From a virus (taxonomy: Duplodnaviria; Heunggongvirae; Uroviricota; Caudoviricetes), in the IMG/VR virus record IMGVR_UViG_3300045988_155182: a stretch of 64,000 bases of DNA. One strand, written 5' to 3'. Every line of letters begins with the position of its first letter. The stretch's first letter is position 1. The notes below the pieces were generated by a model. That model was not told the origin of the DNA. It saw only the letters and a program-made list of their open reading frames with translations, and searched no databases. A program made the translations under genes and the position numbers. Shown piece by piece: positions 10,650 to 23,640 of the stretch.

Positions 10650-11426
10650 ATTACAATGATAAGTATTTACTTACTTATCTTTTATGTATAAGATGACTTT
10701 GTTTTCGTTGAGACGCGACTGTTTGAACTTAAATACAAGTGCAAACGAAGAAGTCTATCTGGCAGTAGCCTAATAAGCCAAACACCAGCGAGGTCAGTTT
10801 CCAGCCTCGTTACCGAAATGGGATACACTGAGCGAGTGTGATTACAGAACGCAGGAGGGAACATGAATGTTCCCTCCGATGAAGTAACAGAATGGGCGGT
10901 TGGTATATTTTCAACTCCATATGACTCCCGGATTCTTAGCCACTGACCGCCCATCCTGTTACGTCATTTTGTTCAATTATGTCGTTTATACTGGGTTAAA
11001 AAGCGGCGACGTAGCCCGGCTGGTATGGTTAGCCAGCACACAACGTTGAGGCCATTACATTTTTATCAATTCTAAGGTTCTATTCACAGAGATACCGGCG
11101 AGCGTTGATATGTAACATGTTGGGCAAACATTCAATCGGAGTAGTGGCCTCAACGTTGTGAAGACAGGATTGTTGTGTAGGTTTAACCACTGTTGCCATT
11201 GGTGCCTGTTTTCACAACAAATGATTCCATACATCACATTGTATAAATTACAAAGTAGGTGCTGTCCTCAGAAACATCATCTACTTAAAGAGTTTGCCTT
11301 CTACTATTGAGCGAAGTCGAAAGCGTCTGGCACTAACGAAAAGTGCAAGTAGCGGTGCGTTTCCTGGCAGAAACTAAACCGTCGCGATTGGCACTGTTGA
11401 GTAATGAATACAGGCAGTGCTGAATT
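10650..11426. other. ORF-poor structured region upstream of the tRNA cluster (candidate ncRNA or processing region)
   Basis: No convincing ORF in ~780 bp; several long inverted repeats including a 20-bp pair at 11037-11056 / 11141-11160. Confidence 0.3.
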
Positions 11427-11501
11427 GATGGTGTAGCTCAGCGGTAGAGCAGTTGGCTGTTAACCAACTGGTCGGTGGTTCGAATCCACCCACCATCGCC
11501 A
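11427..11501 (+). tRNA. tRNA-Asn (anticodon GTT)
   Basis: Cloverleaf by eye: acceptor gatggtg/caccatc, D-arm gctc...gagc, anticodon loop ctGTTaa, T-arm ggtggTTCGAATccacc, encoded CCA. Confidence 0.85.
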
Positions 11502-11503
11502 AT

Positions 11504-11579
11504 GCCGGTTTAGCTCAGTTGGTAGAGCGCCTGCCTTGTAAGCAGGATGTCAGCGGTTCGAGTCCGTTAACCGGCACCA
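11504..11579 (+). tRNA. tRNA-Thr (anticodon TGT)
   Basis: Acceptor gccggtt/aaccggc, anticodon stem-loop cctgc-cttGTaa-gcagg (anticodon TGT), T-arm agcggTTCGAGTccgtt, encoded CCA. Confidence 0.85.
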
Positions 11580-11803
11580 ATACAACGATAAGATCATTAC
11601 GGTTAATCGTCGTTCATGTGCACAATGACTGGTCGAAAGGTAGTGATCTTACCGTTGTGGTGGATTCGCAGACTGATGCGATAGCTTTCTTGGATGTTAG
11701 GGAAATGCGGCCGCAAATCTTCCCTTTCGCGAGCGGTGATCGTCCGTAGTCCTAATTGGCTGCACCGTATGCCGGAGATTCAGTACCGGCCACCACAACG
11801 GCC

Positions 11804-11890
11804 GGAGAGTAGGGAGCATGGTGCTCAAGCGGTCTTGAAAACCGTCCCATTGCGCAAGCGATGATGGTTCGATTCCATTACTCTCCGCCA
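11804..11890 (+). tRNA. tRNA-Ser (anticodon TGA), type II with long variable arm
   Basis: Acceptor ggagagt/actctcc, anticodon loop cTTGAaa, long extra arm, T-loop GGTTCGATTCC, encoded CCA. Confidence 0.75.
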
Positions 11891-12045
11891 GACACAGCGT
11901 TGAGCGGTTTGGCCTTTTAATCAACTCGATTAAGACTCCGCTAACATAAACCAGACCGCTCAACGCTGTGATAGACAATTACGGCAGACGTTCTTAACCA
12001 TAGCTTGCTAACATCCTAGCAACACTTTTTTAAGCGCAAAATCCA

Positions 12046-12068
12046 AAGGGGCTTCGGCCCCTTTTTTG
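12046..12068 (+). terminator. Rho-independent terminator after the tRNA cluster
   Basis: aaaggggc ttcg gcccc followed by ttttttg. Confidence 0.6.
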
Positions 12069-12977
12069 TTAATGATTGCCTAGATATGATTTTAGTTCTT
12101 CTTTAATGATTAGTGAGTATTCTAAAATATCACTTAGTAAAAATTTTGCTCTGTTAAAATACCCACCAAAAGAACCTAAAATTTCAGATGGTCTTTCTAA
12201 GAGCATCACAATATCATCTTCTTGCACTTTAGTAATGTAACTTCTAACAGCTCTTTCTCCAATAACTCTTTTCTTACCGTTTATTTCAGATTCATCTAAA
12301 ACCTTATTTATAAATTTTTCTGTATCATTGAATCGTCCACTATTGTGTACTATTGTATGTCTTAGTAGTTCAATTAGCTTGATGTTAAAGCGATAGTTTT
12401 TGCCAATCTTGTTGTTTGTTTCTATCTCTTTGAAGCCAGGTATTTTATTTCTGAAAATTTTAGTTATTTTTTTCGATGGGTTACTTTTTGCTTTTAATAA
12501 TCTGTAATAAACTTCCCTTTTCCCAATTTCATCATCTTCAACCTTACCAAAATCACTTGAGGACCATAAATCATTTCGAACACATACAGTATAGACATAT
12601 ATTGCCTCAATATAGTCTTCCAGTAACTCATAGGCTTCAGTAATAACCCACTGATATTGTTTATTTTTCAAAGTATTACACAATCTTATCTTTTCTTCTA
12701 AATCAATGGCGCTGTTACCTATCTCTAATGTTGAACCTGTATATGGGTTTGAACATAAATGGCGAGCTAACGTTGTGCCACACTTAATCTTAATAGTTTC
12801 ATTAATATTAATAATAGTATCTGGATTCTGTGCATACTCCACTTCTTTAAGAAGACGTTTTATATTTTTCTTTGTTGTATCATTTATCTGATTTAAATAG
12901 TCAAAAAGTAAAGATATTTCTTCTCTAAATTCGTTGTATTTATTTTCAATCAAAGAATCAGACAACTTACCAATCAT
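12069..12977 (-). CDS. Hypothetical AT-rich protein; possible HEPN-type Abi-like protein
   Basis: 302 aa; the only sizeable minus-strand gene in this segment; strongly AT-rich codon usage; Rx4H motif (RHTIVH) near the C-terminal third; AT-rich upstream region at 12978-13150. Confidence 0.4.
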   Translation of the reverse strand: MIGKLSDSLIENKYNEFREEISLLFDYLNQINDTTKKNIKRLLKEVEYAQNPDTIININETIKIKCGTTLARHLCSNPYTGSTLEIGNSAIDLEEKIRLCNTLKNKQYQWVITEAYELLEDYIEAIYVYTVCVRNDLWSSSDFGKVEDDEIGKREVYYRLLKAKSNPSKKITKIFRNKIPGFKEIETNNKIGKNYRFNIKLIELLRHTIVHNSGRFNDTEKFINKVLDESEINGKKRVIGERAVRSYITKVQEDDIVMLLERPSEILGSFGGYFNRAKFLLSDILEYSLIIKEELKSYLGNH

Positions 12978-22822: not shown

Positions 22823-23095
22823 AAAGAATTATGGCGCTTGTTGAGGAAGTCACTCCTCTTACGCACTTTGTTTTGCCATGCCGGCAGTTAGCTTCTGCCT
22901 TTGACTATTCATGCGGCAACCCCGCATTTCGCCACAATGGGCAATTCACTTTTATGGAATAAACTGGCCGTTGTGTCGATTTAATTAGCATGGCCTTACC
23001 ATGCTAATTTATTCAACTTGTACAATCCTACAAATCTATCCACTCAGGCTTACACCGTCTTCGTTATTGTAGAAATGAGGATCATCAGCGTTGAA

Positions 23096-23311
23096 TCAGC
23101 TTAGAGCAACGACATTTGCTGCTGCTGGGCCTTTAGCACCATTCTCGATAGAGAATTCGACCTGCTGGCCTTCTTCCAAAGTGCGGAAATTATTACTCTG
23201 AATTGCCGAAAAATGTACAAAAACATCTTTACTGCCATCAGCAGGAGAAATAAAGCCAAAGCCTTTATCAGAGTTAAACCATTTTACTAAACCAGTCATT
23301 TTATTAGACAT
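23096..23311 (-). CDS. Cold-shock protein, CspA family
   Basis: [38 protein letters not shown]... with RNP motifs; start reassigned to the internal ATG at 23309-23311. Confidence 0.85.
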
Positions 23312-23640
23312 AGATATTACCTTCTTAATTTTGTGAGCCACATAGTGCGGCGAGAATTTGATCTGTATAGATTGGGACTTACTTAGGCACTTAAGGAGGA
23401 GACTCACGAAGAAGGGAAATCAGAAGATAACACTGAACTGAGACTGCTTTACTAAAACTGCTTACATAAGGTCTGTCTTGCAAACCAACGATGCTATTAA
23501 CGCATACCCCTTCTTTTCATGCAACCTTTATTTTTCAAAGATAACTAATTTTTGTCACCATTGGTTTAGTAAACGTTAACGAACCAGACGATGCCAGACA
23601 CCTTTACAGAGAACAGATGCCCGCCAATTGGCGGGCATCA

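Follow-up and report, generated by a model that had tools for sequence, protein, structure and literature searches.

A tRNA island of an SSU5-like phage-plasmid read as a non-coding RNA operon with a putative tmRNA-derived, message-only module and conserved long hairpins

What does a phage keep in the stretch ahead of its tRNA genes when no protein appears to be encoded there? The question is raised by a 64-kb stretch of DNA, called the window below, which is an SSU5-like E. coli phage-plasmid. A sequence-only reading of the window had pointed to about 780 bp without convincing ORFs upstream of three tRNA genes, and the scarcity of ORFs is real: between 10650 and 11426 the longest is only 90 aa, on the minus strand. 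That reading overlooked the main content of the region, a tmRNA-like module with a short tag reading frame. tmRNA is understood as one molecule or as two base-paired pieces, in which a tRNA-like end brings a message-like part into a stalled ribosome. The module described here keeps all the recognizable message-like features and none of the tRNA-like ones, and it is under coding-type selection in hundreds of phages. Our preferred reading, to which we assign a probability of roughly 0.55, is that the locus is a non-coding RNA operon holding a tmRNA-derived, message-only module and punctuating hairpins, with the tag read by a trans-translation-type mechanism.

The transcription unit and its tRNA genes

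The flagged stretch of about 1.4 kb, from 10666 to 12071, reads as a single non-coding transcription unit with a promoter-like site at one end and a strong terminator at the other (Table 1), because the promoter-like site is conserved, the only strong terminator lies at 12045, and RNA-seq signal is on record for the same region of the relative Cyrano. In the window the promoter match is weak (8/12, under the promoter-scan cutoff of 9/12). The site lies 6 nt upstream of GTTTTCG and is conserved among relatives, with identical -35/-10 spacing in the SSU5-type genomes L019, L037, L054, and SSU5, and unrelated carriers of the module have TTGACA-17-TATAGT (or TAGATT) promoters at an equal distance from GTTTTCG. 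From its position, the RNA would start at about 10700. The palindrome ATAAGTA..TACTTAT (10655-10682) overlaps the site and is a possible operator. At the other end, a hairpin at 12045-12064 followed by TTTTTTG has the features of an intrinsic terminator and is the sole strong one of the unit; homology with Cyrano stops there. CYRAN_40, a spurious CDS in Cyrano, overlaps tRNA-Thr, tRNA-Ser, and the last long hairpin, and its RNA-seq signal in an LF82 lysogen was 15-fold over local background (PMC9928086). The promoter would thus drive one polycistronic RNA ending at the terminator, on which the message-only module would be followed by long hairpins, tRNA-Asn and tRNA-Thr, a hairpin with a tRNA-like RNA, tRNA-Ser, and a final hairpin.

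Table 1. Features of the unit, in window coordinates
Feature	Position	Strand	Basis
Promoter-like site, TTTACT-17 nt-TAAGAT	10666..10694	+	Read from sequence
tmRNA-like module (module A)	10700..10853	+	Covariance model, covariation test
Tag frame, GCA AAC GAA GAA GTC TAT CTG GCA GTA GCC TAA TAA (ANEEVYLAVA and two stops)	10741..10776	+	Read from sequence
SSU5-type-specific pair of hairpins, one with an 11-bp stem at 10854-10877, one with 22-nt arms at 10879-10967	10854..10967	+	Inverted-repeat scan
Hairpin 1, 20-bp stem beginning CACAACGTTGAG, 82-nt structured loop	11039..11160	+	Inverted-repeat scan, folding z = -6.8
Hairpin with the motif in reverse order, GTTGTG...CACAAC	11155..11218	+	Inverted-repeat scan, z = -3.7
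tRNA-Asn (GTT)	11427..11501	+	ARAGORN; Rfam tRNA model
tRNA-Thr (TGT)	11504..11579	+	ARAGORN; Rfam tRNA model
Hairpin module, arms ACAACGATAAGATCATTAC / GTAGTGATCTTACCGTTGT	11577..11663	+	Inverted-repeat scan, z = -4.8
tRNA-like module	11656..11797	+	Recurrent frame in other phages, covariation
tRNA-Ser (TGA)	11804..11890	+	ARAGORN; same gene annotated in D6
Hairpin 2, 20-bp stem beginning CACAGCGTTGAG, 38-nt loop with inner 8-bp hairpin	11893..11970	+	Inverted-repeat scan, folding z = -9.8
Intrinsic terminator, 8-bp GC-rich stem GGGGCTTCGGCCCC then T run	12045..12071	+	Terminator scan; unit end

Two open frames in the region were considered as genes and set aside. The 90-aa minus-strand ORF has no Pfam match, and the corresponding open frame ranges from 60 to 94 aa across close relatives. 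An ORF in the +2 frame, ATG CAA ACG..., varies in its start (ATG, GTG, or CTG) and in length, and just 4 to 15% of its changes are synonymous.

The three tRNA genes already noted in the sequence-only reading, for Asn, Thr, and Ser, are all called by ARAGORN, and those for Asn and Thr also by the Rfam tRNA model (RF00005, 75 bits). The Asn-Thr pair is 92 to 95% identical to that of P1 and P7. For tRNA-Ser the best Rfam match is the tRNA-Sec model, at 46.6 bits versus a cutoff of 47; its identity was set by direct reading (G1-C72, G2-C71, A3-U70, G73, and a long variable arm). As this is a normal serine identity, the gene was rejected as a disguised tRNA-like domain of a tmRNA. Phage tRNA clusters in general (T4, T5, Felix O1, and P1 tRNA1/tRNA2 in the ban operon) resemble the unit in that tRNAs are cotranscribed with small stable RNAs of the same precursor, but punctuation hairpins, a variable-core tRNA-like frame, and a tmRNA-like leader are unannotated there.

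A tmRNA-like module with a start-less tag frame

In module A, the 5' motif (U)GUUUUCGU is joined by a 5' hairpin, an A-rich stretch ahead of the resume codon, the tag frame with a helix around its stop codons, and two H-type pseudoknots. A family covariance model, built for the test on the window without SSU5-, P1-, or CBA120-type sequences, matches 10700-10853 over its full length (67.6 bits, E = 1e-11) as its only match in the window; run against E. coli ssrA, the same model gives no match. When covariation was tested, 93.4% of cells were paired, 15 of 22 pairs had double (compensatory) changes, and 0 of 500 shuffles were as good. Both H-type pseudoknots covary, as does the H5-like helix that encloses the stop (alignment columns 81-84/111-114).

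Standard tools pass the module by. ARAGORN makes zero tmRNA calls in the window and in 45+ family loci, and Rfam matches miss the curated cutoffs (13 bits in the window versus 47 to 84; in the best case, EC6, 32.4 versus 47). Almost all of these subthreshold matches are to tmRNA families; weak matches outside those families are plainly chance. The idea that a standard or permuted tmRNA lies hidden here was rejected, given the negative ARAGORN results and an EC6 match to the permuted model that borrows the T-arm of a genuine tRNA-Ile, with its pairs mostly broken.

In its layout, the module is most readily compared with one-piece tmRNA (ssrA, RF00023). Shared features are a start-less tag that begins GCA AAC GA... 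and runs from AN(D/E)... to A(A/V)A over 10 codons, as in E. coli ANDENYALAA; an A-rich upstream stretch with A at -4; stops within an H5-like helix; H-type pseudoknots after the tag; and a subthreshold alignment of the module to covariance model positions 56 to 295. Unlike that tmRNA, the module is phage encoded, is about 155 to 175 nt long rather than 363, escapes ARAGORN, the Rfam threshold, and, for ssrA, the family model, and has neither the 7-bp acceptor stem with G3:U70, the T-arm, and the 3' CCA of a tRNA-like domain nor a helix closing into one. We interpret the module as tmRNA-derived, retaining the tag-coding half without the tRNA-like half.

Purifying selection on the module, both as a structure and as a start-less 10-codon reading frame, is shown by the pattern of pairing and codon changes among loci. 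At all of the ~140 loci recovered with a tag-independent (pseudoknot) anchor or a relaxed tag filter, the tag has exactly 10 sense codons and then a stop, with the family consensus AN[DE]xx[YFVM][LR]x[AV]A. In-frame ATG, GTG, and TTG are absent in 91 of 102 distinct modules; in 83 of the 102 the frame is closed by a stop ahead of the tag, and 82 of these 83 are also without a start codon. The synonymous share of single-nucleotide codon differences is 43% in the tag frame, compared with 4% and 15% in the other two frames. At position -4 all 46 distinct contexts have A, the equivalent of tmRNA A86, which we take to be the key frame-setting base of tmRNA. Position -5 is U, or C in some loci, and a tmRNA mutagenesis paper reported C at -5 as tolerated. 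Part of the tag lies within a helix, so part of its conservation is structural. Codon statistics indicate that the tag is probably translated, and from a conserved, start-less frame embedded in such a structure we infer reading by a trans-translation-type mechanism, which would add an ssrA-like degradation tag to nascent chains.

The module is widespread. It was found in 692 of 50,697 phage records, including P1, HK620, and Felix O1-like and CBA120-like phages, and in 258 of 5,426 E. coli genomes; SSU5-type copies occur in about 5% of the complete genomes of this species. Bacterial genome contigs yielded mostly chance matches and five real prophage copies (in Rosenbergiella, Pseudocitrobacter, Rouxiella, and Pantoea). 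Conservation extends over at least six unrelated phage groups, compact virulent genomes included, and the module, often with its own strong promoter, is set in tRNA/ncRNA operons or in lambdoid late leaders. It explains a recurrent "ORF-poor" gap in annotations of phages and phage-plasmids. P1 and HK620 are standard laboratory phages, and the element is unannotated in both; upstream of its tRNAs, the P1 annotation has only a "dicF-like region." In the literature searched, the six phage tags tried do not occur and no tmRNA-like element is described for these phages. The module was also missed by a 2014 tmRNA census of 543 RefSeq bacterial viruses, which found ssrA only in mycobacteriophages and none in enterobacterial phages (PMC4131195). 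Phage-borne tmRNA genes, whole or partial, have precedents in complete tmRNAs from Bacillus phage G and from mycobacteriophages and in a fragment in mycobacteriophage DS6A, but the full genes are standard and detectable and DS6A retains the opposite, tRNA-like half (PMC4131195).

The missing acceptor half

If the tag is read, an acceptor would be needed from elsewhere, either host tmRNA-SmpB or a phage tRNA-like RNA. A search beside the module at 143 loci for a tRNA-like domain of alanine identity (G3:U70), defined by a T-arm and matching acceptor strands, gave hits only in Felix O1-like phages; an adjoining alanine-accepting partner was rejected, as the scan turned up only an odd D-arm-less tRNA-like gene in those phages and ordinary tRNA-Ala. 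The conserved tRNA-like module between tRNA-Thr and tRNA-Ser did not survive as a general partner, being present at just 48 of 125 loci and having G3-C70 in its acceptor-like stem. Neither a tRNA nor a tRNA-like module lies within 1.5 kb at 50 of the 125, and therefore a phage tRNA-like RNA is not the general partner. A loop-loop pairing between the tRNA-like and tmRNA-like modules, CUGAUC/GAUCAG, was also dropped, since inspection gave no covariation.

Two-piece tmRNAs (RF01849-RF01851, RF04321) offer the nearest known arrangement in which one RNA piece holds the coding part and another the CCA-bearing acceptor. The best Rfam matches of the window are to beta_tmRNA positions 217 to 304 and to tmRNA_permuted, and the pre-resume consensus AUAAAUGCAAACGA is held in common. 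In two-piece tmRNA, however, the 5' acceptor strand opens the coding RNA, which is paired to an acceptor piece encoded just upstream, and both are absent here. To our knowledge there is no known mechanism for loading a message-like domain that is neither covalently joined nor base-paired to an acceptor domain.

The 5' end of the module is perfectly complementary to nt 97-105 of E. coli tmRNA (ACGAAAACU), extending to 9 to 11 nt with flanks (nt 96-106); the host stretch facing this seed, GACGAAAAC, is part of the ssrA tag codons. Of 111 loci located with an independent anchor, 110 have the 5' motif, irrespective of the upstream context, and among the loci compared sequence conservation is absent ahead of GUUUUCG, where transcripts start. 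A 5' helix, GUUUU/GAAAC, was rejected as the cause of this invariance, since the partner strand is missing in the L034, L059, and L236 types and the motif is still there. Antisense pairing with host tmRNA was not accepted as statistically secure: although the complementarity is perfect, the duplex energy (-12 to -15 kcal/mol) does not surpass that of shuffled seeds, 3 to 60% of which equal it.

One possibility, which we regard as decidedly doubtful, is that the message-only half works in trans in enterobacterial phages, docking on host tmRNA-SmpB (perhaps through the invariant 5' end) or on a phage tRNA-like RNA, so that stalled ribosomes would be switched to the phage template and their chains phage-tagged. 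If true, trans-translation would exist in a split and hijacked form that has no precedent.

The most serious alternative to a translated tag, though we consider it unlikely, is that the module is an untranslated decoy or antisense regulator of host trans-translation, either sequestering SmpB, ribosomal protein S1, or RNase R or base-pairing, through the invariant sequence (U)AGUUUUCGU(C) at its 5' end, with the part of host tmRNA that encodes the tag. The near-universal 5' motif and its exact complementarity favor such a role. So does the observation that phage tags never keep GAAAAC at the corresponding codons, so the module would spare itself. The tRNA-like domain of DS6A, which stands without a coding half, has likewise been proposed to titrate SmpB (PMC4131195). 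A decoy, however, needs neither a fixed 10-codon frame, nor a stop at codon 11, nor an excess of synonymous changes in one frame, and the complementarity, besides its ordinary duplex energy, was spotted post hoc. Whichever reading holds, the outcome would be either a tmRNA template used in trans or phage RNAs of a new class directed against host ribosome rescue.

Long hairpins and the exchange of modules

The sequence-only reading had bracketed the tRNA cluster between two long hairpins with related arms. Hairpin 2 is exactly where it had been placed, right after tRNA-Ser (11893-11912 paired with 11951-11970; 19 of 20 positions paired, the mismatch being G-U). Hairpin 1 also exists, with its left arm at 11039-11058 rather than 11037-11056, a shift of 2 nt, and its right arm at 11141-11160; here too 19 of 20 positions pair, and the single mismatch is G-U on the + strand. 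The common arm motif CACARCGTTGAG has four exact copies in the 64-kb window, all of them arms of these two hairpins, and with up to one mismatch it matches five times versus 0.74 expected, a count reached by 0 of 100 shuffles. None of 200 shuffles folds as well as hairpins 1 and 2, and z-scores over the hairpins of the locus run from -3.7 to -9.8. Three further long hairpins had gone unremarked, at 10879-10967 (z = -5.1), 11155-11218, and 11577-11663.

Related genomes keep these stems. Orthologues of hairpin 1 (in L019, L054, L050, D6, and P7) have 18 to 19 Watson-Crick pairs plus G-U, with compensatory changes at stem positions 13 to 19; hairpin 2 of L019 has an identical stem and another loop; and compensatory differences in the two hairpins that directly follow module A are seen in D6 and P7. 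The G-U mismatches and compensatory changes support the view that the hairpins are conserved as RNA-level structures on the tRNA strand. Hairpins 1 and 2 are members of a family of 17- to 24-bp RNA stems that share arms CACAAC.../...GTTGTG and are sited between functional RNAs.

Such stems may serve as punctuation, being cut by a double-strand-specific RNase of the RNase III type that would free or define the ends of the tRNAs and other modules. It is stem length that suggests this enzyme, which requires roughly two helical turns (about 20 bp) of near-uninterrupted duplex RNA: the 20-bp stems 11039/11160 and 11893/11970 and the 22- to 24-nt arms 10879/10967 and 11577/11663 are of that size. 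Stems of about 20 bp also flank or enclose functional RNAs of polycistronic transcripts in rRNA operon stalks, T7 early mRNA sites, and the lambda sib/N leader, and in about half of the contexts without a promoter of their own the flanks of the tmRNA-like module are mutually complementary, as in the stems around rRNAs. The earlier suggestion of processing signals or small ncRNAs fits the RNA-level conservation and the position inside one promoter-to-terminator unit, and its cleavage component is a prediction.

The same stems could instead remain uncut, as stabilizers or insulators that block exonucleases and prevent neighboring RNAs from misfolding together. Very stable stems do stand right after tRNA 3' ends (tRNA-Thr...CCA-AU-hairpin and tRNA-Ser...CCA-GA-hairpin), and stems are conserved where loops vary. 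However, maturation of a tRNA 3' end needs the trailing sequence removed and therefore some cut at or near the stem. A purely protective role is rather improbable, though the stems as observed fit it as well as they fit processing.

A reading of the hairpins at the level of DNA, as ends of a mobile cassette (integron attC-like, MITE-like, or recombinase sites that move tRNA genes as units), is highly unlikely. Its appeal is that the hairpins, like attC sites, are imperfect inverted repeats of 60 to 140 bp associated with cassette-like gain and loss, and that the arm ends CACAAC...GTTGTG resemble the outer attC cores RYYYAAC...GTTRRRY (ACACAAC and GTTGTGA have one mismatch each); the motif is also where indels and mosaic joints fall, and a tyrosine recombinase gene lies 1.6 kb downstream. 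Yet the 20-bp stems are nearly perfect and bulge-free, the extrahelical bases and unpaired spacer of attC are absent, and the mismatches, being G-U, favor the transcribed strand. For the recombinase the sole model match is the generic Phage_integrase, not IntI, and P1, HK620, and virulent phages have these hairpins without such an enzyme, many carriers having no integron machinery. For these reasons the attC and MITE interpretations were rejected.

Nor does the cluster behave as the mobile tRNA cassette, present or absent as a unit between two hairpins, that had been suggested, as relatives differ piecemeal in tRNA content: Asn alone in SSU5, Asn-Thr-Ser in Cyrano, and elsewhere Asn-Tyr-Thr-Ser or Arg-Thr-Ser; among the 744 matching E. 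coli genomes the tRNA content varies. Some tRNA insertions have spacers of 4 to 5 nt and no hairpin. Homology with SSU5 stops just past hairpin 1, and 11423-11913 is 94 to 95% identical to the unrelated P1-like phages P7 and D6. Cyrano has just ACACAATT, an 8-nt gap, between tRNA-Thr and tRNA-Ser; the resulting 216-nt indel, whose first half in the window is the hairpin 11577-11663, is flanked by ACAACG repeats. With joints at short ACAAC(G) repeats and hairpin ends, modules have been shuffled piecemeal, and homologous recombination between short repeats explains the joints. The repeated arms are shown by such alignments to mark recombination joints, as at the insert missing from Cyrano, and because they are repeated they are also sites of module gain, loss, and exchange between unrelated phages. 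Phage tRNA islands can in this light be regarded as modular RNA operons with conserved punctuation hairpins, a view relevant to annotation and to phage engineering.

The insert itself bears out the remark that the gap of about 220 bp between tRNA-Thr and tRNA-Ser folds and may hold a degenerate tRNA or sRNA. The gap measures 224 nt, its GCCGG/CCGGC stem is confirmed, other phages conserving it with covariation, and a tRNA-like RNA is present, on which ARAGORN makes no tRNA call (11656..11797). The stem UGUGGUG/CACCACA closes it with 7 bp, and within lie the D-like hairpin UCGC-AGACUGAU-GCGA, 85 nt of variable core, and a T-like hairpin formed by the GCCGG/CCGGC stem. That leader and insert are decaying tmRNA and tRNA pseudogenes hitchhiking with useful tRNA genes is scarcely credible: degenerate tRNA-like pieces do occur in such islands (the 3' half of a tRNA-Met in KpV2811, several uncalled T-arm elements in CBA120) and the insert's core is not conserved, but covariation, including compensatory pseudoknot changes, the synonymous bias of an open tag frame of constant length, and the spread of a frequently tRNA-free, often self-promoted module over unrelated and compact genomes largely refute it. 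The tRNA-like frame recurs in 45 distinct phage sequences around cores of about 40 to 170 nt, and its three helices are 97 to 98% paired, with compensatory changes at three pairs.

A tag frame with a coding-type selection signature

The region holds a widespread, apparently undescribed derivative of tmRNA that lacks the tRNA domain. At 10741-10776 of the window, the tmRNA-like module reads GCA AAC GAA GAA GTC TAT CTG GCA GTA GCC TAA TAA (ANEEVYLAVA and two stops), compared with GCA AAC GAC GAA AAC TAC GCT TTA GCA GCT TAA TAA (ANDENYALAA and two stops) for the tag of E. coli tmRNA. Searching by blastn with the leader returned this stretch, about 100 nt, in 317 phage records from unrelated groups. 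The family was collected in two independent ways, by a pattern scan over the tag and by a scan anchored on the downstream pseudoknot motif that excluded the tag. The pseudoknot-anchored scan recovered the tag in 111 of 120 matches; eight of the other nine were chance matches, and one carried GCAAAAGAT.

Every member collected has exactly 10 sense codons followed by a stop. Tags include ANEEMYLAVA, ANDEQFLAVA, ANDDVVLMAA, ANDDLMLMAA, ANDNVFLAVA, and ANDNQYLAVA, with ANDDLMM(A/V)AA in P7, P1, and D6 and ANDNTFLAVA in CBA120, where codons 1 and 2 are GCT AAT. Single-nucleotide codon differences are synonymous in 43% of cases in the tag frame versus 4% and 15% in the other two frames, and codons 1 and 10 vary at the third position only. 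Of 102 distinct modules, 91 lack an in-frame ATG, GTG, or TTG; a stop lies in frame a few codons 5' of the tag in 83, and in 82 of these no start codon intervenes. The tag bears the signature of coding-type selection and has no start codon. Four positions upstream lies an invariant A that corresponds to A86 of tmRNA, the most conserved and most critical frame-setting base in that molecule. Together these features are evidence for translation of the tag.

Structure was tested on a 37-sequence alignment, using a helix that encloses the last tag codons and stops, plus two H-type pseudoknots. Paired cells made up 93.4%, versus 26 to 53% when partners were slid, and 15 of 22 pairs had changes on both sides (103 cells). 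None of 500 shuffles equaled the observed cells paired, double-change counts, or covariation score, and the pseudoknots are conserved RNA structures.

Relation to tmRNA and the acceptor

Neither the window nor any other locus drew a tmRNA call from ARAGORN, and Rfam returned nothing at threshold on the module. Below threshold, apart from one plainly chance match in the window, only tmRNA families matched: the copy in the Felix O1-like phage EC6 scored 32.4 bits with RF04321 and 16 bits with RF00023 (model positions 56-295), and the window copy scored 13 bits with beta_tmRNA (positions 217-304). A covariance model built from 30 sequences, with all SSU5-, P1-, and CBA120-type copies left out, found the window copy at full length (67.6 bits, E = 1e-11), as well as those of P1, D6, SSU5, Cyrano, CBA120, and phiG17; it did not match genuine E. 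coli ssrA. The tRNA-like domain that defines tmRNA was looked for and not found, and for that reason we do not place the module in the tmRNA family. A scan of 143 loci for a T-arm accompanied by matching acceptor strands and by G3:U70 succeeded only in Felix O1-like phages, in an odd tRNA-like gene without a D-arm. At 50 of 125 loci, neither tRNAs nor the tRNA-like module found in the Thr-Ser gap of the window occurs within 1.5 kb.

We infer that the tag would be read by a trans-translation-type event, with the acceptor supplied in trans. The main rival explanation, that the module is an untranslated decoy or an antisense regulator of host trans-translation, leaves the codon statistics unexplained. 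The 5' motif of the module complements nt 97-105 of host tmRNA exactly, inside the host tag codons (9 to 11 nt with flanks), a sequence never retained in phage tags; the duplex energy was no better than that of shuffled controls. This match was noticed after the fact and is a lead to the partner only as a hypothesis.

Where modules have their own promoter (KpV2811, EC6, and the window), the RNA start lies within a few bases of a near-invariant (U)AGUUUUCGU. Many modules without a promoter of their own have complementary flanks, resembling the stems around rRNAs. The Felix O1-like gene, at 2702-2780 of the EC6 locus, lies directly 3' of the module, with G3:U70, A73, an encoded CCA, a UCU anticodon loop, and a long variable region. 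Its anticodon stem covaries among Felix O1-like phages, and it scores 31.2 bits on Rfam tRNA without an ARAGORN call. A role as alanine-accepting partner is possible, as is one as a mis-charging tRNA.

Carriers and prior descriptions

The module occurs in 692 of 50,697 phage records, where the annotation beneath the match is almost always "none." Carriers include P22-like HK620, Felixounavirus, Kuttervirus CBA120, Gamaleyavirus, and Klebsiella and Vibrio siphoviruses. Of 5,426 complete E. coli genomes, 258 have the SSU5-type copy, which usually sits on a plasmid of about 110 kb and which PGAP leaves unannotated; prophage copies occur in Rosenbergiella, Pantoea, Rouxiella, and Pseudocitrobacter. 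A 2014 tmRNA census, exhaustive on RefSeq viruses, listed ssrA in mycobacteriophages only and, outside RefSeq, in Bacillus phage G, along with a DS6A fragment consisting of the tRNA-like domain only (PMC4131195). Full-text searches of the accessible literature turned up neither the six phage tags tried nor any account of an element of this kind.

In HK620, the late promoter/qut site and the late terminator flank the module, so this RNA would be the short, constitutively made late transcript of the phage, the equivalent of lambda 6S RNA. At 2238-2895 of that locus, the module, a hairpin, and a tRNA-like module fill the interval from the annotated qut site to late terminator tQ. The unannotated P1 module sits in the ban-operon leader, between an annotated "dicF-like region" and tRNA-Asn. 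There (492-593 and 586-760 of the locus), it follows the "dicF-like region" and a terminator-like hairpin, in the leader of the C1-controlled operon; a hairpin 3' of tRNA-Thr encloses a degenerate T-arm (GGGTTCGAATCCC). A 2.2-kb unannotated stretch of CBA120 (830-2990 of its locus) holds the module (126 bits with the covariance model) and several T-arm-bearing tRNA-like elements, none called by ARAGORN.

A non-coding unit of shuffled modules

Everything between the promoter-like site and the terminator lies on one strand and is non-coding; the operon is a single-strand non-coding unit.

Features of the operon in the window
Feature	Position (nt)	Remarks
Promoter-like site, TTTACT-17-TAAGAT	10666-10694	Position kept in SSU5-type relatives
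Hairpin 1 arms	11039-11058 / 11141-11160	19/20 paired; sole mismatch G-U on + strand
tRNA-Asn(GTT)	11427-11501	ARAGORN; Rfam 75 bits
tRNA-Thr(TGT)	11504-11579	ARAGORN; Rfam 75 bits
Hairpin module	11577-11663	First part of Thr-Ser insert
tRNA-like module	11656-11797	Second part of Thr-Ser insert
tRNA-Ser(TGA)	11804-11890	ARAGORN; Ser identity set read directly from sequence
Hairpin 2 arms	11893-11912 / 11951-11970	19/20 paired; sole mismatch G-U on + strand
Intrinsic terminator	12045-12064	Sole strong one found

The sequence-only reading had described an ORF-poor region upstream of three tRNA genes. No credible ORF is present in 10650-11426. The start of this region holds the tmRNA-like module, which that reading missed. 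ARAGORN calls exactly these three tRNA genes in the 64-kb window, and Rfam confirms Asn and Thr; for the Ser gene, whose D6 counterpart was annotated by the D6 authors, the top Rfam model is tRNA-Sec (46.6 bits versus a cut-off of 47). In phage Cyrano, the spurious coding sequence CYRAN_40 overlaps tRNA-Thr, tRNA-Ser, and hairpin 2 and is listed at 15-fold above local background in RNA-seq of LF82 lysogens (PMC9928086), indirect evidence that the operon region is expressed. A palindrome conserved in SSU5 (AATGATAAGTA / TACTTATCTTT, 10655-10682) overlaps the -35 of the operon promoter and could serve the phage repressor as an operator. All SSU5-type relatives conserve motif AATGATTCCATACATC (11220-11243), which is located 3' of the hairpins and 5' of tRNA-Asn, is followed by a TATAAA-like box, and may be an internal promoter or processing site.

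Both inverted repeats proposed earlier exist, with the left arm of hairpin 1 lying 2 nt from its first placement, and their common start is real: the 12-mer CACARCGTTGAG is found only at the four arms. Allowing up to one mismatch gives 5 matches versus 0.74 expected, a count reached by 0 of 100 shuffles. Folding z scores are -6.8 for hairpin 1 and -9.8 for hairpin 2, and three more long hairpins had been overlooked (10879-10967, 11155-11218, and the hairpin module; z of -3.7 to -5.1). Hairpin 1 orthologues in SSU5-type elements and the unrelated P1-like phages P7 and D6 retain 18 to 19 Watson-Crick pairs, with compensatory changes at stem positions 13 to 19; most of the remaining positions read G-U on the tRNA strand, which would make them C-A on the opposite one. 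Hairpin 2 keeps its stem in an SSU5-type relative (L019) that has a different loop. The hairpins are conserved RNA structures, and their stems, compensatory changes, and strand-specific G-U pairs support the suggestion that they act as RNA-level signals or small RNAs. We infer that a double-strand-specific RNase cuts the 20-bp stems, or that the stems at least mark RNA ends, which would release the tRNAs and other RNAs. Outer arms CACAAC(G/A)... / ...GTTGTG close further hairpins in many phages, e.g., CACAACAGGTAAGAGCA...TGCTCTTTCCGTTGTG. The arm ends resemble the integron attC pattern, RYYYAAC...GTTRRRY, but we rejected attC sites given the absence of extrahelical bases and of an IntI integrase and the strand-specific G-U pairs.

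The hairpins had also been suggested as possible ends of a mobile tRNA cassette. Relatives differ piecemeal in tRNA content and joints, which makes the cluster a string of modules recombining at short shared repeats and not a unit cassette with the two hairpins as its limits. Repeated hairpin arms coincide with mosaic joints, and it is there that modules are shuffled. SSU5 homology to the window stops at the end of hairpin 1, past which SSU5 has tRNA-Asn alone and then half of hairpin 2 in degenerate form. The tRNA order is Asn-Tyr-Thr-Ser or Arg-Thr-Ser in other E. coli phage-plasmids. P7 and D6, phages with otherwise unrelated genomes, match window 11423-11913 at 94 to 95% identity. The Thr-Ser gap is 8 nt (ACACAATT) in Cyrano versus 224 nt in the window, and the edges of the indel are ACAACG at 11582 and 11795. 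KpV2811 (about 2835-2865 of its locus) has the 3' half of a tRNA-Met gene (TTCGAATCCTGTCGCGGGAACCA) without the 5' half, an example of tRNA decay inside such islands.

A 7-bp stem closes the tRNA-like module. A 5-bp hairpin follows it immediately, then a variable core and a 5-bp GCCGG/CCGGC hairpin abutting the 3' strand, the last being the fold already seen in the Thr-Ser gap. The same frame is present in 45 distinct phage sequences, with an unconserved core of about 40 to 170 nt. Pairing in its three helices is 97 to 98%; changes are compensatory at three pairs and wobble-only elsewhere, and the frame is a conserved RNA structure. The module has no anticodon arm, G3:U70, or ARAGORN tRNA call, and an encoded CCA is usually absent. 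Its 5' end (GGTGGATTCG, 11659-11668) is a perfect complement of the T-loop and T-stem of tRNA-Asn (CGAATCCACC, 11481-11490) and is also similar to the UGGAUUCGAC stretch at the 5' end of E. coli tmRNA.

Around the locus, Escherichia phage CMS-2020a is 98.5% identical to the window over 1.9 kb and Cyrano, an SSU5-like phage-plasmid of E. coli LF82, 98% over the same 1.9 kb. Genes adjoining the operon encode a DNA ligase, a glutaredoxin, a tyrosine integrase, an HTH repressor, and CobT, as is usual for the SSU5-like group. Directly past the terminator, a 302-amino-acid ORF without a Pfam match (12069-12977, minus strand) lies in an island of 30% GC versus a window average of about 45%. Cyrano has other genes in this slot (CYRAN_41 to CYRAN_43), one of them 723-fold over background in lysogens, and the slot looks like a variable "moron" or defence slot. 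At 23071-23489 (minus strand), a full-length Rfam match to the cspA thermoregulator 5' UTR (187.6 bits versus a cut-off of 78) indicates a cold-shock-protein-type gene on the phage-plasmid, accompanied by its RNA thermosensor.
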